From NCBI GenBank assembly GCA_963422735.1, contig OY730476.1:448001-512000 (forward strand): a stretch of DNA of 64,000 bases, in the 5' to 3' direction. Both the position numbers and the translations under genes were made by a program. This document shows, piece by piece, positions 24,894-36,408 of the stretch. Every line of letters begins with the position of its first letter. Within the stretch, counting starts at the first letter, position 1. Origin of the DNA: Candidatus Latescibacterota bacterium (lineage in GTDB: Bacteria > Latescibacterota > UBA2968 > UBA8231). The notes below the pieces were generated by a model. The model had not been told where the DNA came from, did not search any database, and worked only from the letters and a program-made list of their open reading frames with translations.

Positions 24894-26477
24894 ATGCCTA
24901 AGCCCAAGATTATGTTCTACCACGACGGCCGGCACCCGCTGATCTACATGTACGAACCGCCGATACAAAAAGAGGAATATGAACAGGGGGTGGACGAACT
25001 GTTGGGCACGCCGGTCGAGGCGATCATGTTTTGCCTCGGCGACGGTCGCACTGTGCTGCACGACACGGAGGTAGGAGAACTGTGGGGCCACAATGTGAAG
25101 CGGTGGCCCCATTTGATTTTCCGCCGCGCCCACCAAAATGCCCGCGATCTAATCCGCAAGGGACAAGACCCCTTGCGCCTGATTTGCGACCGCGCCCACC
25201 AGTACGGCAAGCAGGTCTATCCGACGCTGTTGGTGCAGCAGGGGCGGGGGCCGCGGGAAGAGGACGTGCGCTGCTCGGATTTCCGCTTTGACAACGCCCA
25301 TCTCGAAATCGGTGCGCAAGACGATGTGCCCGCCGACTATCCCGGCCGCACCTGCCTAGATTTCAAGCACCAAGCCGTGCGCGACGAGCGCTTTGCCCTG
25401 ATTGCCGAGACCCTAGAAAAATATCCGGTGGATGGCTTTGAACTGCAGATGAACTACCAGCCTTACTACTTCCACCCAGACGAGGTCGCCGCTGGCCGCG
25501 AGGTTATGACCGAGTGGGTGCGCAAGGTGCATTGCGCCGTCAAGCAGAGCGGGAAGCAACGCGAGTTGGCGATCCGCATCCCCTACAACCTCGAGGGGTG
25601 CTATGCCGTCGGCATGGACATTGAAGCGTGGCTGCGCGAAGGGCTGGTCGATGTGCTGATCGGTCAGGCGTTTTCCGGCCCGGAGCTTTTGGACTCGACC
25701 CTTGATTTCCGGCCCTTGGTTGCGGCCGCCCAAGGCATAGGCTGTCGAGTGTACGCGGCCTTGCAAAGCCACGTGGACTCGGACCGTGTGGGGGAGGCGA
25801 CCATTGAGATGGTGCGCGGGGCCGCTTGCAACTTTTGGGCGCAGGGCGTCGATGGCCTGTACCTGGCGCACTGGTTTGGCAACTGGCCGTACCAGGCATC
25901 CTTCTACGAGAAGCTGCGGGAATTGCCCTATCCAGAGGTCATGGCCGCGCGCGATAAAATTTACTATGTACCGACCGCGACGGGTCGCTACCCCAATCCC
26001 ACCACCGAGCCGGGGACGACCATGCAGCTGCCGGCCTATTTGCAAAAGGGCCACAAGGCTTCCATCACCCTGTCGGTCAGCGACGATCTGCGGCGCTGGG
26101 CCAGGGTCGGCCGGGTCCACGAAGTGTTGCTGCGGGTGCGGGTGATGGGCCACACCGAGCGCGACCGGCTGAAATTCTACCTCAATGGTCGAGAGTTGCC
26201 CGCCAGTCTGCTGCGCAGGATCAACGAATTATACCGGATGTCGGCTCCGCGCTATCGCACGGGATCAGGGTATTGGTATGCGTTTAAGCTGGACGCCAAA
26301 CACTGGCCGAAAAAGGGAAACAACACACTCGCAGTCGAATTAGTGCGGCGCGATGCTCAGGTGCTGCCAGAAATTTTTGTACGCGATATAGAGCTAGATA
26401 TTAAATACCTAATGGGGCGCAATTTCCATCGCGGCCAAGATGTGGATCTGGGGCCGAGCGAACCGTCAGGAGTATGA
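24894..26477 (+). CDS. Glycoside-hydrolase-like TIM-barrel protein (GHL10-like), no signal peptide
   Basis: LDFKHQAVR...YPVDGFEL, DIEAWLREGLVDVLI, GVDGLYL; homologous to 34858..36408. Confidence 0.65.
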   Translation: MPKPKIMFYHDGRHPLIYMYEPPIQKEEYEQGVDELLGTPVEAIMFCLGDGRTVLHDTEVGELWGHNVKRWPHLIFRRAHQNARDLIRKGQDPLRLICDRAHQYGKQVYPTLLVQQGRGPREEDVRCSDFRFDNAHLEIGAQDDVPADYPGRTCLDFKHQAVRDERFALIAETLEKYPVDGFELQMNYQPYYFHPDEVAAGREVMTEWVRKVHCAVKQSGKQRELAIRIPYNLEGCYAVGMDIEAWLREGLVDVLIGQAFSGPELLDSTLDFRPLVAAAQGIGCRVYAALQSHVDSDRVGEATIEMVRGAACNFWAQGVDGLYLAHWFGNWPYQASFYEKLRELPYPEVMAARDKIYYVPTATGRYPNPTTEPGTTMQLPAYLQKGHKASITLSVSDDLRRWARVGRVHEVLLRVRVMGHTERDRLKFYLNGRELPASLLRRINELYRMSAPRYRTGSGYWYAFKLDAKHWPKKGNNTLAVELVRRDAQVLPEIFVRDIELDIKYLMGRNFHRGQDVDLGPSEPSGV

Positions 26478-29595: not shown

Positions 29596-29629
29596 CGTTT
29601 GATCTGGGGAGATTCTTTAAGAAGAATCG

Positions 29630-29666
29630 CAAGAGCCGGCGGCTGGACCGTCGGCTCTTGTTGTTT
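29630..29666 (+). terminator. Intrinsic terminator
   Basis: 13-bp stem CAAGAGCCGGCGG/CCGTCGGCTCTTG with a 5-nt loop, then TTGTTT. Confidence 0.8.
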
Positions 29667-29722: not shown

Positions 29723-29789
29723 TCACAGCAGAAGTAACACCCCGCGCCGTTATAGGTGTTTGAGTAGTACACCGCCAGGGAATACATGG
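29723..29789 (+). promoter_or_regulatory. Putative ECF-dependent (autoregulatory) promoter, copy 1: GTAACA...GGTGTTT
   Basis: 52/67 ungapped identity (hand-aligned) to 33892-33958; a -35 'AAC' core is typical of ECF promoters. Confidence 0.6.
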
Positions 29790-30259
29790 ACGTAGATACG
29801 CTGTACCGTCGCTACGGGCCGATGGTCATGCGTCGTTGTCGGCAGCTTTTGCGCGACGAAGACCAAGCGCTCGACGCCACTCAGGATGTGTTTGTGCGGC
29901 TATTGACGCGGCGCGACCGCCTGCGGGATGACGCGCCCTCCAGCCTGCTCTATCGCATGGCCACCAACCTCTGCCTCAATCGCATCCGCGACACCCGGCG
30001 GCGGAAGACTACGGCCGACTCGACGCTGTTGGAGCAAATAGCCTGCTGGGAGGACGCCGAGGGCCGGATAGAGGCGCGCGCCGTGCTCGCCAAGCTCTTT
30101 GGCCAACAGCGCGAGTCAACGCGCACAATGGCCGTCTTGTACTACGTTGACGGCATGACCTTGGAGGAGGTGGCCAGAGAAGTGGGCATGTCCGTATCCG
30201 GCGTGCGCAAGCGGTTGCTCGGCCTGCGAGCATCGCTGCAAGAGATGGAGAAGCCATGA
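29786..30259 (+). CDS. ECF RNA polymerase sigma factor
   Basis: Region 2 LYRRYGPMV...DATQDVF...LYRMATNLCLN; region 4 DGMTLEEVA.EVGMSVSGVRKRL. Confidence 0.92.
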   Translation: MDVDTLYRRYGPMVMRRCRQLLRDEDQALDATQDVFVRLLTRRDRLRDDAPSSLLYRMATNLCLNRIRDTRRRKTTADSTLLEQIACWEDAEGRIEARAVLAKLFGQQRESTRTMAVLYYVDGMTLEEVAREVGMSVSGVRKRLLGLRASLQEMEKP

Positions 30260-31017
30260 ACCAGCAAGACGAGCGCCCCATAAGTGATTACCAACTAGAG
30301 CGCTACCTGCTGCGCGAGGGTACCGACGACGAGTTGGCGGCTTTGGACCGCCGGTTGGCGGCCGATTTAGAGCTCGCGCAGCGGCTAGCGGCCCTAGAGC
30401 GCTCCAACGAGGAAGTGCATCGGCACTACCCACCCGAATGGATGCGCGGCCAGATCGAGCTAAAACTCAAGCGGACGCAGGGTCGGCGCGTCCAACGAAC
30501 GTGGAGTGGGTATCGCCTTTGGGCCGTGCCGGCTGTGGCCCTGATCCTGGCGGTGGTGGCGGTGCCCACTCTCCTCGACCAAGAAACGCCGGAAGCACCC
30601 GCGCTGCGGGTCAAAGGCAGCGAACAGGAGCCGCGTTTGCTGGTCTTCCGCAAGCTGGCCAGCGGTGCAGAGCGTCTGCAAGACGAAGCCTTGGCCCAAA
30701 GCGGGGACTTGGTGCAGCTCGCCTACCGCTCCGGTGGCTTGCAGTACGGGGCGATTCTGTCCGTCGATGGTCGCGACATCCTAACTCAGCACCTGCCCGC
30801 GACTGGAGCAGAGGCCGTGCCGCTGGCGGAGCAAGATACCCTCGACGTTGCCTACGAACTGGACGACGCGCCGCTGTGGGAGCGGTTTTACTTGGTGGCG
30901 GCCGATCGCCGCTTTGGCTTGGCAGCGATCAAGGCCAAGCTGGCCGCCGGCGATGTGGCGTTGGGTGATGATGTCCGCCTTTTTACCTTCATCCTACGCA
31001 AATCGGAGGCCCCTTAG
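30256..31017 (+). CDS. Membrane anti-sigma factor-like protein (ActD-like / DUF4384-like extracytoplasmic domain)
   Basis: ATGA overlap with the sigma gene; N-terminal LERYLL.E helix, one TM (LWAVPAVALILAVVAV), LRVKG motif, then GD.VQLAY...ILSVDG beta domain. Confidence 0.75.
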   Translation: MNQQDERPISDYQLERYLLREGTDDELAALDRRLAADLELAQRLAALERSNEEVHRHYPPEWMRGQIELKLKRTQGRRVQRTWSGYRLWAVPAVALILAVVAVPTLLDQETPEAPALRVKGSEQEPRLLVFRKLASGAERLQDEALAQSGDLVQLAYRSGGLQYGAILSVDGRDILTQHLPATGAEAVPLAEQDTLDVAYELDDAPLWERFYLVAADRRFGLAAIKAKLAAGDVALGDDVRLFTFILRKSEAP

Positions 31018-31040
31018 CTTATAACCAGCGAGGTATAACT

Positions 31041-31613
31041 ATGGAAGCCGTACTGAACTTTCAGCCCGTTATCGATCTGACCGAAGATCAATTTTTTGAA
31101 TTTTGTCAGCTCAATCGCGATGTGCGTATTGAGCGCAATTCAAAAGGAGAAGTACTAGTTATGCCACCAACGGGAGGAGCAACGGGTGTGCGGAATGCAG
31201 AAGTCACCATGCAGTTGCGCTTATGGGCAAAACAAGATGGCACCGGCGTGGCCTTTGATTCTTCGACCGGATTTGTGCTACCCGACCGCTCTGTCCGCTC
31301 GCCGGATGGCGCGTGGGTTGCGCGGTGGCGGTACGATGCCCTGACCGAGGCGCAAAAGAACAGCTTTCTGCCCCTTTGTCCAGAGTTCGTCATTGAACTC
31401 AAGTCTCCCTCGGATTACTTGCCCTCGTTGCGAACAAAAATGGAAGCATACATTGAAAATGGCACCCAATTGGGCTGGCTCATTGTCCCAGAGCAAAAAA
31501 CCGTAGCGATCTACCGTCCGCAAGTCCCGGTCGCAGCGCAGGAAAACCTCAATGACCTAGCGGCCGGCCCCACCTTGCCGGGATTCGCATTGAAGCTCAG
31601 CGAAATCTGGTAA
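31041..31613 (+). CDS. Uma2-family (DUF820) PD-(D/E)XK endonuclease
   Basis: FDSSTGF.LP...RSPDGAWV, CPEFVIELKSPSD, KMEAYIENG..LGWLI. Confidence 0.92.
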   Translation: MEAVLNFQPVIDLTEDQFFEFCQLNRDVRIERNSKGEVLVMPPTGGATGVRNAEVTMQLRLWAKQDGTGVAFDSSTGFVLPDRSVRSPDGAWVARWRYDALTEAQKNSFLPLCPEFVIELKSPSDYLPSLRTKMEAYIENGTQLGWLIVPEQKTVAIYRPQVPVAAQENLNDLAAGPTLPGFALKLSEIW

Positions 31614-31653
31614 TCGCCCCCCTTAGCCGACAAATCTACAATCTAAAATCTCT

Positions 31654-33717
31654 ATGTTGTCGAGGCTGAGTGGGTTAATCGCGCTTGTAGTTGCGGCGGG
31701 TCTGTTCCAGCCGTCAGCAGCCGAGGTGCGCCGGTTGATCCTCGCTGCGGGAGCCAACAACGGCGGGGTGGATCGCGAACTGTTGCGCTACGCGGCCTCG
31801 GACGCGGAACAATTCGTCGAGGTGTTGCAGGAGATGGGGGGCCTGGACCCGGCCGATGTATTGCTGCTGCGCGATCCCGACCTAGCCGCCTTCGAGAAGG
31901 GGCTGGCCGATCTGGGTCGGCGGGTGCAGGCGGCCAGCCGGCGGGGGGACCGGCTGGAAGTATTGCTTTACTACTCGGGCCACGCCGACGAAGAGGGCTT
32001 GCTGTTGGCCGGCGATCATCTCGGCTATCAGCAGTTACTCGACTCGCTGAAGACGGCCGACGTCGCCGTCCGCATCGCCGTCCTCGACGCCTGCAACTCC
32101 GGGAGCATAACCCGCATCAAGGGAGGCAAGCCACAGCCGCCCTTTTTAGTCGATGAGTCCTTTGACATGCGGGGCTACGCCTTTCTCACGTCGAGTTCAG
32201 CCGATGAGGCGGCGCAGGAATCGGACCTGATCGAAGCGTCTTTTTTTACTCACTATCTAATTTCCGGAATGCGCGGCGCGGCGGACGTTACTGGCGATGG
32301 TCGGGTGACTCTCCACGAGGCGTACCAGTTCGCATTCGACGAGACGCGGGCGCGAACTATTGGGACTGCGGGAGGCACTCAGCACCCAGCCTATGAGGGC
32401 CAGATGCGCGGCACCGGCGGCGTGGTGATGACTCAGGTGCGTCGCAATGCAGCGGGCCTGTTACTAGACGAGGCCCTCGCCGGCCGGATATCTATCCGCA
32501 ATGAGCAGCAGCGCCTAGTCGCCGAACTGAACAAATCCCCGGGTCGGGTGGTCGAGCTGGGATTGATGCCGGGGGCCTATACGCTGTTTTTGGAAACGTG
32601 GGACGCGGACTGGCACTTGGCCGAATTGGTTCTGGCCGAAGGGGGGTTCACCAACGTGAGTACCGGCGACTTTCGCGTCCTGACCCCAGAGGACACTAAG
32701 CTGCGCGGCGGCTCGGGGAGGAGGATTACCTTGGCCTTGGGGCGCCAAATCGAGGTCGCCACCAGCGAGGGCTACACCTTGTCGCTGGGGCTGTTGACCA
32801 ATACGCAGGGCGAGGCGTTCCGCGGCGTCCAGTTCGCTTGGCTGGTCAACCAAGCGCGCGGTCGGACGGGTAGTCAGATCGGCGGGTTGGGCAACTTGGC
32901 ACTCAAAGAGGTTGATGGCTGGCAGGCGGCTGTCGTGGGCCCCAACTGGGCAATGGGGCCTTTGCAAGGTGGACAGGTGGGCTTGATCAACATCGCCTCT
33001 CAGGTGCGTGGCTGGCAAGTGGCGCAAACGACCAACGTTGTCGGCAAAATTCGCGGTTGGCAACTGGCCGGGGTTACCAATTTCGTCGGCGAGGTCAAGG
33101 GCGGTCAGATCGGATTATTGAACGTGGCGAGCGAGGTCAAAGGCTGGCAGGTGGGCTTGGTCAACCTTTCCGGCCACATCGAGGGCGGCCTGCCCATCGG
33201 GTTGATCAACTACTCGCACAGTGGGCTTTTCAGCCTCAGCACTTGGCGCGACGAAGTCGGCTTTACCATGTTCACCCTCGCCTCGGGCAGCCGCTCGTTT
33301 TACACTGCTTTTACTACTGGCTTTGCCGTCCAAGACGGCCAGCGGCGCTGGGCGCTGGGCGTGGGAGGTGGAGTGCAAAAGCGCGGGCGGCGGTTTTGCC
33401 TCGGCCTCGACGTACATAGCTATCGGATCAGTCGCGCCCTCGATGACGATTACAAAGCGGGCATTGGGTTTTGGCCACCCTCAGTGGACTTTGGCCTAGA
33501 CCGATTGGCCCGAGACAACTACTTGGCGCGGATCAAACTTGAGACGGGGGTCTTTTTGCACAGCCGGCTGTCGCTGTTTGGCGGCGTCTCCCTGAACCAA
33601 TTGTGGACCGATGGCCATCTGCGGCTGATCGAGTCGGGTAGCCGCTACGAGAAGGAGTGGAAAGATGGGCTTTTCGCGTGGCCGGGTTTTTTCTTTGGCC
33701 TGCGCTACGGGCGTTAG
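31654..33717 (+). CDS. Exported caspase-family (C14) protease with GxQ..N repeats and a C-terminal beta-strand (outer-membrane-like) domain
   Basis: Signal peptide; YYSGH110 / VLDAC147 dyad; SSSADEAAQESD, FTHYL..G.RGAAD; about seven GWQ/GGQ..N repeats; ends WPGFFFGLRYGR. Confidence 0.85.
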   Translation: MLSRLSGLIALVVAAGLFQPSAAEVRRLILAAGANNGGVDRELLRYAASDAEQFVEVLQEMGGLDPADVLLLRDPDLAAFEKGLADLGRRVQAASRRGDRLEVLLYYSGHADEEGLLLAGDHLGYQQLLDSLKTADVAVRIAVLDACNSGSITRIKGGKPQPPFLVDESFDMRGYAFLTSSSADEAAQESDLIEASFFTHYLISGMRGAADVTGDGRVTLHEAYQFAFDETRARTIGTAGGTQHPAYEGQMRGTGGVVMTQVRRNAAGLLLDEALAGRISIRNEQQRLVAELNKSPGRVVELGLMPGAYTLFLETWDADWHLAELVLAEGGFTNVSTGDFRVLTPEDTKLRGGSGRRITLALGRQIEVATSEGYTLSLGLLTNTQGEAFRGVQFAWLVNQARGRTGSQIGGLGNLALKEVDGWQAAVVGPNWAMGPLQGGQVGLINIASQVRGWQVAQTTNVVGKIRGWQLAGVTNFVGEVKGGQIGLLNVASEVKGWQVGLVNLSGHIEGGLPIGLINYSHSGLFSLSTWRDEVGFTMFTLASGSRSFYTAFTTGFAVQDGQRRWALGVGGGVQKRGRRFCLGLDVHSYRISRALDDDYKAGIGFWPPSVDFGLDRLARDNYLARIKLETGVFLHSRLSLFGGVSLNQLWTDGHLRLIESGSRYEKEWKDGLFAWPGFFFGLRYGR

Positions 33718-33891
33718 ACGGGCCTAAGTGTACTGATTTTCGCAATCGCCAGTTCAGGTCCGCAACGTGGCCATCTCCCCTGAGGCAAGCTTCCAAGCCT
33801 CGCTCAATCATACGACGCATCCGACATAGCCTACCGATAACAAGCTGTATTCGACTGGTTACTTCTTGTAACCTTTTGTCGCAGCAAAAAA

Positions 33892-33958
33892 TCACTGCAC
33901 AGGTAACATCACGTCCCGCCGCAGGTGTTTAAGTAGTACACCGCCAAGCAATACTTGG
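33892..33958 (+). promoter_or_regulatory. Second copy of the ECF-type promoter region
   Basis: Conserved GTAACA, AGGTGTTT and AGTAGTACACCGCCA with identical spacing to copy 1. Confidence 0.6.
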
Positions 33959-33996: not shown

Positions 33997-34134
33997 ATGG
34001 CGAAATCAAGTGGTAGTCGCGGTGGCGGTAGAGGCGGAAGCCGTGGAAGTGCCGTCTGGCCCGAAAACAAGCCCAGCACAACGGGCAACCCCTCTGGTAA
34101 AGGCCGAACTAGTGCCCCTCAAAGAAGCAAATGA
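33997..34134 (+). CDS. Unannotated 45-aa Gly/Ser/Arg-rich microprotein (PSTTGNPSGKGR motif)
   Basis: MAKSSGSRGGGRGGSRGSAVWPENKPSTTGNPSGKGRTSAPQRSK*; very strong SD GAGGAGGTGA; below the ORF-track length cutoff. Confidence 0.7.
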   Translation: MAKSSGSRGGGRGGSRGSAVWPENKPSTTGNPSGKGRTSAPQRSK

Positions 34135-34199
34135 TTGGTAGGTGCTGATTGCGGTATTTTTTTGCGGTCAGCACCTACCCCAACAAATGGCTTCATTTG

Positions 34200-34420: not shown

Positions 34421-34690
34421 TCAGCCCGGTAAGCGGGACAAGATGAGCGTACCGAGCGCGATGAGGCTGGCGATTTGGATGCCGATAAGCCAGCGGGTGA
34501 GCGCGTCGATGCGGGCGTTGGTCGCGTCAATGCGGGCGTTGGTCGCGTCAATGCGGCGGCCCATATCGGCAAAGCCGGTCGATTGGCCTTGTTTTATGTC
34601 GTCCAATTGGCGGTCTAACTGCTCGGCGATGCCTTCCAAGCGACCTAGGCGGCGGTCATGGTCTTGGGCTTGCGTAATCGGTTCGCTCAT
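34421..34690 (-). CDS. Small coiled-coil protein with RIDATNA repeats and a C-terminal TM anchor
   Basis: AGGAG SD; RLGRLEG heptads; 21-bp DNA repeats; hydrophobic tail WLIGIQIASLIALGTLIL. Confidence 0.7.
   Translation of the reverse strand: MSEPITQAQDHDRRLGRLEGIAEQLDRQLDDIKQGQSTGFADMGRRIDATNARIDATNARIDALTRWLIGIQIASLIALGTLILSRLPG
34502..34556. repeat. 21-bp tandem repeat x2.6 (coding RIDATNA)
   Basis: CGCGTC(G/A)ATGCGGGCGTTGGT units read directly. Confidence 0.9.
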
Positions 34691-34857: not shown

Positions 34858-36408
34858 TCAGTTCTTATAGAGGATGACCAACTCGACGTCAGTCAGCAGC
34901 AAGTCGCAGGCAAGTTGGGGATGGCGTTGCAAGAGAACGACGTCTAAGCGATGGAGGCCACAGGCGGCTTGGTCGGCCGTGAGCGCAAAGCGGTGCCAGG
35001 CAGCGGCGCTGACATCGGCAATGGGTTGGGGGTCGCCGCCGTGGCAATAGCTAATATCCGGGTCGGACAAGACTTGGCCGTCCCAGCAGCAGCGGAACTG
35101 GTCGCCAGCGACCCAATCTCGCAGACGCAGACGCAAGGTAATGGTCGCCGGCGGATCCGCGCTCAAGTCGTCGGCAAGGTCGAGGTCGAAGTGGGGGCCG
35201 GTTTCCCGCATGGTCGGGTAGAGGGGGACGGGTAGGGTGCCGCGCAGCCGGTCGTGCTGGTACGCGCCGCGCCAAGCCCCTGTATGCTGGCGGAAGCGGT
35301 GGGTCGCGCTGTAGAGCTTGTCTTGGCGGCGCAGGGTCTGAACCGCGCCCACTTGGGTTAGCAACTCGCGCTTTGAATCGCGGTTGGCGTGCCAGTTGAA
35401 CGCGTATATACCGGTCGCGCCTTGGCGGTGATACTGCATGGCCGTGGCTTTGGTGCGCATGTTGTGGCGGACCGATTCGTCTTCGGGGCCGGCGGCCGGG
35501 CCGGGGACGCCGCCGTCGAACCCTGGATAGAGGGCGATGTCGCTGTCGGCGCACAGGGCGCGGAAGGCACTGACCTCAATGGCTGGATCGGTAGCGGCGG
35601 CACCGGCTGGGATCAGGATATCGACGAGGTTTTCCCCTACCCAAGTTTCCACGTCGTAGCCAATGCGGTGACAGCCCTCGATGGAGCCGGCGACGCGGGC
35701 CGCTAGGTAGAAAGGCCGGCCGCGCTGTTGGGCGAGTTCGTCGGTCAGTTGCCGCGCCGCCCGCATGAAATCGGTGAGGACGTAGCGCAGGCGATAGGCA
35801 TGGTCGGCGGGGAAGTGGAAGGGGTGGCGTTGCCAGTCGAGTTCGACGCCGTCCCAGGGGTAGTTTTGGCAGACTTCTCGCAAGTGCTGGAAGCGATTTT
35901 CGCGCACTTGGGGGATGGCCATATTCCACGACAGGGCGAACCACTCCTCGGTATCCGCGCCGAGCAGCCATTCGGGGTGGTCCTTGCGCAGTTGAGTCAG
36001 CTCGGTGTGGTGCAGGGTCTGGAGGTCGGCTAGCTGAGCGCCGTTGAAGTGATTGTCGTTCATGCGCAGCGAGGCATACACGTGCAGGCCGAGTTGGTGG
36101 CCGCGGTCGATGATGGCCTCTTGGGGGTCTTCGCCTCGCTCCAGCATGCGGCGAATGTTTTCGGTGTGCGCGTAGCTAGCAGCATTCTCGTAGCGGCGTT
36201 GGTGAGTGTCGCCGAGCAGTTCGAGCGCGTCGCTTGGCCAGCGCGTGGCGTGTTCGCCCACGCACCAAAATAGGGCACCGACCTGGGTGTCTTCGAGGGG
36301 GGCGTACGCCTTGTCGAGAAAGGCGTCCATGGACTGGGGAACGGGCGAGTAGCCGTGGGGTGCGCCGTCCCAGTTATAGATGATGCCGTAGTCAGCGGGA
36401 TGGGGCAT
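34858..36408 (-). CDS. Glycoside-hydrolase-like TIM-barrel protein (GHL10-like), no signal peptide
   Basis: IIYNWDG, SLRMND.H, HPEW, YPWDGVELDWQRH, DVETWV.ENLVDILI, GATGIYAFN; AAGGAG SD. Confidence 0.7.
   Translation of the reverse strand: MPHPADYGIIYNWDGAPHGYSPVPQSMDAFLDKAYAPLEDTQVGALFWCVGEHATRWPSDALELLGDTHQRRYENAASYAHTENIRRMLERGEDPQEAIIDRGHQLGLHVYASLRMNDNHFNGAQLADLQTLHHTELTQLRKDHPEWLLGADTEEWFALSWNMAIPQVRENRFQHLREVCQNYPWDGVELDWQRHPFHFPADHAYRLRYVLTDFMRAARQLTDELAQQRGRPFYLAARVAGSIEGCHRIGYDVETWVGENLVDILIPAGAAATDPAIEVSAFRALCADSDIALYPGFDGGVPGPAAGPEDESVRHNMRTKATAMQYHRQGATGIYAFNWHANRDSKRELLTQVGAVQTLRRQDKLYSATHRFRQHTGAWRGAYQHDRLRGTLPVPLYPTMRETGPHFDLDLADDLSADPPATITLRLRLRDWVAGDQFRCCWDGQVLSDPDISYCHGGDPQPIADVSAAAWHRFALTADQAACGLHRLDVVLLQRHPQLACDLLLTDVELVILYKN

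Follow-up and report, generated by a model that had tools for sequence, protein, structure and literature searches.

What does an exported caspase-like protease do in an operon with a sigma factor and the membrane-bound inhibitor of that sigma factor? The question is raised by a locus in Candidatus Latescibacterota (assembly GCA_963422735.1, contig OY730476.1, positions 448,001 to 512,000), a stretch of 64,000 nucleotides (nt) referred to here as the window. Between positions 29786 and 33717 of the window, four co-directional genes on the plus strand encode a sigma factor of the extracytoplasmic function (ECF) type, an anti-sigma factor, a Uma2-family protein and a C14 caspase-like protease. 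To our knowledge, the roles of bacterial caspases are largely unknown, and these proteins are usually discussed in connection with cell death. The sigma factor, anti-sigma factor and caspase form a trio that is real, widespread and an undescribed variant of ECF anti-sigma control; no paper on an operon of ECF sigma factor, anti-sigma factor and separate C14 caspase was found in the full-text literature, subscription journals lying outside the coverage of that search. The answer preferred here, with about an even chance of being correct, is that a periplasm-facing caspase, held by a tether to the outer membrane, would act as the site-1 protease of the anti-sigma factor, within a self-regulated envelope signalling operon. 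The four genes are as follows.

29786..30259, plus strand: ECF (group IV) sigma factor, 157 amino acids (aa), with Pfam Sigma70_r2 and Sigma70_r4_2 and NCBIfam sigma70-ECF matches
30256..31017, plus strand: single-pass anti-sigma factor, 253 aa, with an ATGA overlap with the sigma open reading frame (ORF)
31041..31613, plus strand: Uma2-family gene (putative restriction endonuclease fold), 190 aa, PF05685 at E 3.3e-37
31654..33717, plus strand: exported C14 caspase-like protease, 687 aa, Pfam Peptidase_C14

Conservation of the operon

The sigma factor consists of regions sigma2 and sigma4 only, and its 157 aa fall within the range expected of an ECF (group IV) sigma factor (about 150-200). It matches Pfam Sigma70_r2 at 56.4 bits (cut-off 24; E 2.5e-15) and Sigma70_r4_2 at 27.0 bits (cut-off 25.7), as well as NCBIfam TIGR02937 (sigma70-ECF) at 84.2 bits (cut-off 42.9). 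An initial annotation of the window, made from the letters alone, had described a sigma factor and a single-transmembrane partner overlapping by ATGA; both points hold, with reading frames at 29786-30259 and 30256-31017 and one hydrophobic span in the anti-sigma factor at aa 88-106 (nt 30517-30573). The same annotation had a signal-peptide caspase protein follow the anti-sigma factor. The protein does begin with a signal-peptide-like N-terminus, but it is not directly adjacent, since the 190-aa Uma2 gene, which the annotation did not mention, lies between the two. The trio is present once in this 4.95-Mb single-contig genome.

Conservation was assessed through a profile search with the caspase, taking one genome per species; the 79 loci compared here come from the best 80 of at least 592 confirmed matches. 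These loci span at least 9 phyla and belong to Latescibacterota, Gemmatimonadota, Acidobacteriota, Fibrobacterota, Myxococcota, Spirochaetota, Fermentibacterota, Eiseniibacteriota, Aminicenantes and unclassified metagenome-assembled genomes. Cultured carriers among them are Corallococcus terminator CA054A (L078) and Citreicoccus inhibens M34 (L037). Sigma and anti-sigma genes lie directly upstream of the caspase gene, on the same strand, in 67 of the 74 caspase loci that have at least 1500 nt upstream. The seven exceptions are L012, which has a Uma2 insertion; L053, which has a 2-kb insertion; L016, in which the anti-sigma factor is undetected and the sigma match is partial; L037 and L068, without a detectable sigma factor; and L045 and L046, without either gene upstream. 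When start codons are refined, the sigma and anti-sigma genes overlap by 4 nt (ATGA type) in 51 of 66 pairs, and the anti-sigma and caspase genes overlap by 4 nt in 40 of 65 pairs and by 1 nt in a further 10. Gene order and overlaps across the loci point to a translationally coupled three-gene operon of ECF sigma factor, single-pass anti-sigma factor and exported C14 caspase as the ancestral state. The Uma2 gene between anti-sigma factor and caspase, found among the window and the 79 loci elsewhere in L012 only, is best read as a lineage-specific local insertion into this operon. Six further, more distant Uma2 paralogues are encoded in the same genome.

The association can also be viewed from the anti-sigma factor, which is present in 69 of 168 genomes of the phylum. 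The 30 best anti-sigma-centred loci, which are kin and not independent, have the sigma gene upstream in 30/30 and the caspase gene downstream in 28/30. Conservation of the caspase beside sigma and anti-sigma homologues had been set in advance as a test of the initial annotation, and the arrangement passes it both here and in the caspase-centred loci (67/74). Two Fibrobacterales genomes carry a sigma/anti-sigma pair elsewhere (L117, L118) without a neighbouring caspase. No other protease recurs in the loci, to which only the sigma factor, anti-sigma factor and caspase are common. One Latescibacterota family has a second caspase paralogue about 3.3 kb downstream of the trio's caspase (L018, L021, L022; also G072, G074, G076, G081, G089).

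The anti-sigma factor and its linker

The anti-sigma factor has the layout of a class I membrane anti-sigma factor, with N-terminal helices that putatively bind sigma, one transmembrane span, an extracytoplasmic domain and a gene placed right after that of the sigma factor. A structural model built on a 66-sequence alignment (predicted local distance difference test, pLDDT, 82.5) contains helices at aa 11-18, 24-36, 38-57 and 60-76, a stretch at aa 78-121 with pLDDT below 50 that holds the transmembrane span and linker, and a confident beta-sandwich at aa 127-249 (nt 30634-31002). Basic residues before the span and acidic residues after it place the helices in the cytoplasm and the sandwich in the periplasm. 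The zinc-binding anti-sigma (ZAS) motif H-x3-C-x2-C is excluded, as the 253 aa include no Cys and give no zf-HC2 Pfam match. Searched against the PDB with Foldseek, the sandwich finds nothing at E <=1e-3, only generic immunoglobulin-like sandwiches.

The window anti-sigma factor has no Pfam match, and DUF4384 (PF14326) gives none at E up to 0.1. DUF4384 is matched by 11 of 66 anti-sigma orthologues (best E 5.7e-6) and appears as an Atlas lead at 0.77; by its Pfam description, this domain otherwise occurs fused to caspases. A profile search of 1.84 billion cluster representatives finds anti-sigma relatives in 7,927 clusters (50% identity) at E <=1e-3 and in 2,325 at E <=1e-30, which gives the scale of the matter: a family of 7,927 clusters without a Pfam model of its own.

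The candidate cleavage site lies between the transmembrane span and the sandwich.

30604..30618, plus strand: linker motif L-R-V-K-G, aa 117-121, candidate site-1 cut after K120

This one motif, just before the sandwich, is constant in a linker that otherwise changes in length and sequence. The initial annotation had drawn attention to LRVKG just outside the transmembrane span; the motif stands at aa 117-121, and only its start needs moving, because position 30601 took in the preceding Ala codon. Its expectation that R-x-K-G is conserved is borne out in 69 orthologues, where K120 and G121 are invariant (69/69 each), R118 is present in 61/69 and position 119 is I, L or V in 61/69. The consensus is (T/I/V)-R-(I/L/V)-K-G, with an acidic residue at P6 in 37/69. 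The same pattern extends to the top 150, independent of one another, of the 7,927 cluster representatives (K 150/150, G 150/150, R 138/150). K120 sits in a juxtamembrane stretch that is disordered (pLDDT <50), 14 residues away from the membrane.

The exported caspase and its motif copies

The caspase matches Pfam Peptidase_C14 (PF00656) at 30.9 bits (cut-off 21.4) and carries the p20-type His-Cys dyad of C14 members. A signal peptide (aa 1-23) precedes the caspase domain (about aa 25-255); another conserved domain then extends to aa 345, and behind it come a linker, eight repeats and a C-terminal region. Its features are listed below.

31981-31983 and 32092-32094, plus strand: codons of the catalytic dyad H110 and C147, with D145 two residues before the Cys
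32110..32127, plus strand: T-R-I-K-G-G, aa 153-158, 6-11 residues after the catalytic Cys, candidate self-processing site
32284..32319, plus strand: EF-hand-like loop D-x-T-x-D-G-x-V-T-x-x-E, aa 211-222, possible Ca2+ site
32689..32709, plus strand: E-D-T-K-L-R-G, aa 346-352, candidate tether-cleavage site after R351, ending the conserved N-terminal module
32824..33186, plus strand: eight GxQ..N repeats, aa 391-511, period 14-17, LA_2272-like
33187..33714, plus strand: C-terminal region, aa 512-687, with an aromatic-rich end, presumed outer-membrane anchor

Caspases have their inter-subunit linker region shortly after the catalytic Cys. The window protein carries T-R-x-K-G-G at aa 153-158, a sequence absent from the initial annotation, and its conservation is close to complete (T 69/74, R 74/74, K 74/74, G 72/74, G 74/74). 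Caspase aa 153-157 and the anti-sigma linker thus share the pentapeptide (T)-R-x-K-G. The motif also tracks the partnership: among 30 Peptidase_C14 loci of the phylum, ITR(L/A)KGG follows the Cys in 10/10 with an adjoining anti-sigma factor, and T-R-x-K-G occurs in 0/10 parsed caspases without one (20 such loci, the active-site stretch being parsed in 10). In the genome at large, 86 occurrences of R[ILV]KG in 1.97 million ORF residues predict 0.03 per 687 aa and 0.0017 per 40-aa linker. The longer pattern [TIV]R[ILV]KG is found genome-wide in 10 ORFs; the caspase is one of them, and none of the others stands out as a further substrate. The presence of a third motif copy inside the caspase, beside the catalytic Cys, lends added support to the cleavage reading. 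Homology between anti-sigma factor and caspase was considered and rejected (hhalign probability 1%), though the alignment did place the linker motif against caspase aa 151-158.

The active site is invariant. H110, D145 and C147 are each found in 74/74 orthologues, so the His110/Cys147 dyad that the initial annotation reported as intact is also conserved throughout. The nearest solved structures by sequence are metacaspases, with weak matches (E 2e-4 and 0.016), and the D-x-C of the window protein aligns with the D-S-C of metacaspase-4 (E 0.016). The NCBIfam model caspase_w_EACC1 (NF047832) scores the caspase at 57.5 bits, below its cut-off of 140. In a review of C14 proteases, all characterised members other than caspases are described as cutting after Arg or Lys by way of an acidic pocket, and caspases as maturing by self-cleavage between p20 and p10 (PMC5756287). 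A basic residue at P1, as assumed in the initial annotation, would fit both this account and the invariant D145-x-C147 (74/74).

Two further elements complete the conserved module. The motif E-x-T-x-x-R-G (E 66/74, T 64/74, R 72/74, G 72/74) marks the point at which homology between long and short forms of the caspase ends. It overlaps the KLRGG that had been noted earlier as a linker resembling the anti-sigma motif, which is indeed present at aa 349-353 but spans nt 32698-32712 and does not start at 32695. Upstream of it, aa 211-222 form an EF-hand-like loop, which may be a Ca2+ site; in this loop D211 is found in 74/74 orthologues, D215 in 67/74 (E in 7), G216 in 67/74, V218 in 69/74, T219 in 73/74 and E222 in 74/74.

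Past aa 352, the family diverges into a variable linker followed by at least two C-terminal types. Long forms, such as the window protein, have GxQ..N repeats and a putative beta-rich end. About seven repeats had been counted initially; the repeats are there, and number eight (aa 391-511). The aromatic-rich C-terminal end described at the same time is also evident on direct reading. The window caspase scores 20.5 bits against the LA_2272 surface repeat (NF047436, cut-off 25) and 23.5 against the VC2662 family (NF047437, cut-off 140), and an Atlas search with its C-terminal region returns leads under 0.9 only. Short forms make up 31 of the 74 orthologues, measure 510-620 aa and lack the repeats. 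In their place and that of the C-terminus, PF13505 (OMP_b-brl) is matched in 3 of 5 short forms scanned (one match exceeds the Pfam cut-off; E 1e-7 to 4e-3). In a quick phylogeny of the N-terminal module, 6 switches between long and short are required, and well-supported branches force at least 3 of them. Given these short forms, the repeats are dispensable for the trio. Because short-form orthologues carry OMP_b-brl, the C-terminal part is read here as an outer-membrane barrel, which would put the protease in the periplasm.

Promoters and candidate targets

The operon is framed by two copies of a direct repeat. The promoter that the copies share is likewise new relative to the initial annotation.

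29723..29789, plus strand: copy 1 of a 67-nt direct repeat, with GTAACA (29734-29739), a 16-nt spacer, GTGTT (29756-29760) and a conserved leader running into the sigma ATG
33892..33958, plus strand: second copy of the 67-nt repeat, holding another ECF-type promoter after the caspase gene, with GTAACA-N16-GTGTT at 33903-33929 and the same leader
33997..34134, plus strand: 45-codon Gly/Arg-rich ORF with a GGAGG ribosome-binding site and, behind it, a 12-bp inverted repeat (34137-34179)

The two repeat copies are 78% identical, and the extended promoter motif has exactly two sites in the 4.95-Mb genome, one before the sigma gene and one after the caspase gene. In 55 of 68 loci, from all phyla, GT(A/G)ACA-N15-17-GTGT(T/C) is found no more than 150 nt upstream of the sigma gene, compared with 0/68 in a reversed-sequence control. 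The motif has the appearance of an ECF promoter, with conserved -35 and -10 elements, that is under autoregulation. In most of the other 13 loci it stands about 1 kb farther upstream, before an extra first gene. A loose version of the motif gives 5 matches genome-wide against 3 in the reversed control, so the regulon proposed here is confined to the two window sites. Between 29500 and 34500 there is no Rfam match and no sigma-70-type promoter.

The 45-codon ORF behind the second promoter copy may be a further target of the sigma factor. Neither Pfam nor Rfam matches it, and no credible tblastn relative turns up in the 79 loci. In L010, a similar second promoter copy downstream of the caspase gene precedes a different ORF. 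The unlinked Fibrobacterales caspases (L045, L046) have an ECF-type promoter motif directly upstream.

Other envelope genes stand near such promoters in some relatives. An extra first gene between the ECF-type promoter and the sigma gene encodes a 387-397-aa LA_2272-repeat protein at L063:3359-4549, L070:1217-2377 and L079:213-1403; these proteins exceed the NF047436 cut-off, and their hosts are Spirochaetota and one 'Proteobacteria' metagenome-assembled genome. TonB-dependent receptor-like genes (Plug and barrel) lie behind further promoter-motif copies downstream of the caspase gene at L051:3262-5679 and L062:9959-12376. In Vicinamibacterales, a 342-aa exported protein with its own ECF-type promoter is encoded right after the short-form caspase (L049:7722-8747, L073:7710-8735); part of it resembles the second domain of the caspase, and it has no Pfam match.

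A candidate site-1 protease and its alternatives

Taken together with the class I layout of the anti-sigma factor, these observations suggest a signalling scheme. The ECF sigma factor would be held at the inner membrane by the single-pass anti-sigma factor, while a Sec-exported, metacaspase-like protease, presumably specific for Arg or Lys, would be tethered to the outer membrane by its C-terminal part. An envelope cue would render the caspase active. The enzyme would mature by cutting its own post-Cys loop (T-R-x-K|G) and might free itself from its anchor at R351. We infer that it would then cut the anti-sigma factor after the invariant K120, the site-1 step. The short membrane stub would be removed by a site-2 protease, and the genome encodes two M50 site-2 proteases. 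Freed sigma factor would transcribe from the GT(A/G)ACA-N16-GTGTT promoters, both of its own operon, as positive feedback, and of the second copy before the 45-codon ORF. What the data establish is the order and coupling of the genes, their joint occurrence in many phyla, the invariance and specificity of the motifs and the presence of the promoter motif; which protein cuts which, how the caspase is oriented and what triggers it are deductions from these.

Several considerations weigh against this scheme. A caspase that is merely an output of the sigma factor would just as well be expected in the operon and under the shared promoter, and a sigma-induced protease that cuts its own anti-sigma factor leads to runaway positive feedback unless tightly gated. 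The motif match was found post hoc, and the post-Cys T-R-x-K-G-G could be a structural active-site loop and not a cut site. The periplasmic orientation of the protease derives from the OMP_b-brl matches of short-form orthologues, not from the window protein. Finally, counts such as 67/74 are limited to this caspase family and include about ten near-identical Latescibacterota sequences, which are kin and not independent.

The best-surviving alternative, unlikely but with a real share of probability, makes the caspase no more than an output that the sigma factor switches on: a protease of the envelope acting on other substrates, in envelope remodelling, defence or cell death, while the anti-sigma factor is inactivated by a different signal or protease. 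The promoter data fit this account equally well, and operon linkage by itself gives no direction. It draws further support from the unlinked caspases of L045 and L046, which are still found behind an ECF-type promoter, and from the TonB-dependent receptor-like genes (L051, L062) and LA_2272-repeat genes (L063, L070, L079) that relatives place under the same promoter type. However, it leaves unexplained why the invariant K-G of the linker sits in the same pentapeptide as the post-Cys loop of the caspase, and why that loop motif is restricted to caspases linked with this anti-sigma factor. The translational coupling of anti-sigma factor and caspase in 50 of 65 pairs, moreover, suggests a fixed stoichiometry.

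The shared pentapeptide could also be read in the opposite direction, which seems distinctly improbable. The linker would then be a tethered pseudo-substrate or docking peptide that keeps the caspase inactive at the inner membrane, so that caspase activity is what is regulated and sigma release is secondary. In its favour, the linker copies the enzyme's own loop motif, and 11/66 orthologues match DUF4384, a domain that otherwise comes fused to caspases. A pseudo-substrate that resists cutting, however, should not keep the Lys-Gly scissile pair, yet that pair is invariant here, and the complete cytoplasmic sigma-binding part and autoregulated sigma factor fit ordinary sigma release.

An unlinked third protease, for example a trypsin-like enzyme of the HtrA/DegS type, might instead recognise all three basic-Gly motifs and process caspase zymogen and anti-sigma factor in parallel. 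Many serine proteases could accept a basic P1 with Gly at P1', but none is conserved in the loci and the linked enzyme already has the matching predicted specificity, so that this account deserves little weight. Weakest of all, and very improbable, is the proposal of the initial annotation that a caspase exposed at the surface detects an outside ligand by means of its GxQ..N repeats before cutting the anti-sigma factor: the repeats do resemble the NCBIfam LA_2272 'surface repeat' family, but they are dispensable, being absent from the 31/74 short forms (which carry OMP_b-brl) and affected by at least 3 long/short switches on the tree, and a linker in the periplasm, 14 residues away from the inner membrane, would be out of reach of a protease at the surface.

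The site-1 reading admits a bolder version, which we regard as speculative and unlikely. The trio might form a proteolytic cascade across the envelope, one that signals what state the outer membrane is in. The anchored caspase would be freed either by failed insertion of its anchor or by a self-cut at E-x-T-x-x-R|G after maturing at T-R-x-K|G, and would then cut the identical motif in the anti-sigma factor. If true, ECF pathways would gain their first site-1 protease from the caspase family, and zymogen maturation followed by substrate cleavage would have a bacterial counterpart in at least 9 phyla.

The site-1 reading itself, if correct, would give a large family of exported caspases a defined physiological job, the gating of a transcription switch. 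It would also add a third ECF signalling design, in which a dedicated, operon-encoded site-1 protease sits on the opposite membrane. Its three candidate cut sites are short and strongly conserved, and can be mutated residue by residue. A compact protease-gated sigma switch with a defined promoter might also serve as an orthogonal genetic part.

Relation to known systems

In the RseA/DegS/RseP and RsiW/PrsW systems, a site-1 cut of the extracytoplasmic part of a single-pass anti-sigma factor is followed by a site-2 metalloprotease, and the ECF operon is autoregulated. The scheme proposed here is alike in following class I regulated intramembrane proteolysis. It differs in that the candidate site-1 enzyme is a caspase-family cysteine protease encoded in the operon. 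Unlike the proteases of the RseA and RsiW cases, this candidate would be tethered to the opposite membrane and carries copies of its substrate's motif. Systems of the FecI/FecR/FecA type do not match: the four window proteins contain no FecR, STN or Plug domain, and TonB-dependent receptor-like genes with the promoter motif are found only in L051 and L062.

Among described systems, DdvS/DdvA of Myxococcus xanthus comes closest. The DdvA anti-sigma factor carries a fused periplasmic TPR-CHAT domain of caspase fold, for which self-cleavage of the juxtamembrane linker in trans, before RseP, is proposed (PMC11506125, PMC6061681). The two systems have in common an ECF sigma factor with a single-pass anti-sigma factor, a caspase-fold His-Cys module that in the window is predicted to lie in the periplasm too, and proteolysis of a flexible linker next to the membrane that is proposed to precede an RseP-type cut. 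The protease of DdvA is a TPR-CHAT domain fused to the anti-sigma factor and acts in trans within a dimer, whereas in the window the C14 protease has a gene to itself, a signal peptide and a C-terminus of apparent outer-membrane type. The window anti-sigma factor, with a 123-aa beta-sandwich, no zinc motif and no TPR or CHAT domain, is not of the DdvA type. DdvS is described as controlling defence genes of the cyclic-oligonucleotide-based antiphage signalling system (CBASS) and of clustered regularly interspaced short palindromic repeats (CRISPR); the recognisable targets here are the operon itself and the small ORF.

The initial annotation had likened the locus to Csx29/Csx30 of type III-E CRISPR. 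In that craspase system, the TPR-CHAT protein Csx29 cuts Csx30 and frees an ECF-like sigma factor (PMC11506125). The analogy holds to the extent that a sigma factor comes under the control of a protease of caspase fold, which cuts the inhibitor of that sigma factor, but it is remote, and DdvA with its fused TPR-CHAT domain is closer (PMC11506125). Craspase is a cytoplasmic, RNA-guided CRISPR effector of CHAT and not C14 type, and has no membrane anti-sigma factor. Pfam finds no TPR, CHAT or Cas domain in the module's four proteins.

Orthocaspases and metacaspases resemble the window caspase in the His-Cys dyad, the Asp two residues before the Cys, the expected Arg or Lys at P1 and the likely self-processing (PMC5756287). 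The characterised members are cytoplasmic or eukaryotic and tied to cell death, whereas the protein described here is predicted to be exported and tethered to the envelope, and is wired to a sigma/anti-sigma pair.

Among classified ECF groups, ECF25 invites comparison. The supplement passages on this group (SigG/SapG of Nostoc punctiforme) give it a very wide taxonomic range, with Deltaproteobacteria, Spirochaetes, Fibrobacteres, Gemmatimonadetes and Acidobacteria, and note that its single-pass anti-sigma factor may carry DUF4384 (PMC7826278 supplement). The taxonomic spread and DUF4384 anti-sigma factors are similar to those of the trio, going by this description of the group of Casas-Pastor et al. 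Those supplement passages name no caspase in the conserved neighbourhood (PMC7826278).

Flanking features

Two hairpins bound the module.

29629..29661, plus strand: strong terminator-like hairpin with a 14-bp stem, which would insulate the module from the upstream gene
33857..33873, plus strand: small terminator-like hairpin 3' of the caspase gene

Contigs of a metatranscriptome library (X20), 90-95% alike, span 29803-30980 and then diverge; as contigs alone they imply neither transcription nor its start sites or levels. A contig from X7, a run whose RNA type is a guess, covers 29896-31682 and as a contig is no evidence of transcription, starts or levels either.

Beyond the operon, a 21-nt tandem duplication, 95% identical, occupies 34502-34543 within an 89-aa ORF on the minus strand (34421-34690), in which it yields a repeated heptapeptide. 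Two flanking ORFs, at 24894-26477 on the plus strand (527 aa) and at 34858-36408 on the minus strand (516 aa), have similar N-termini.

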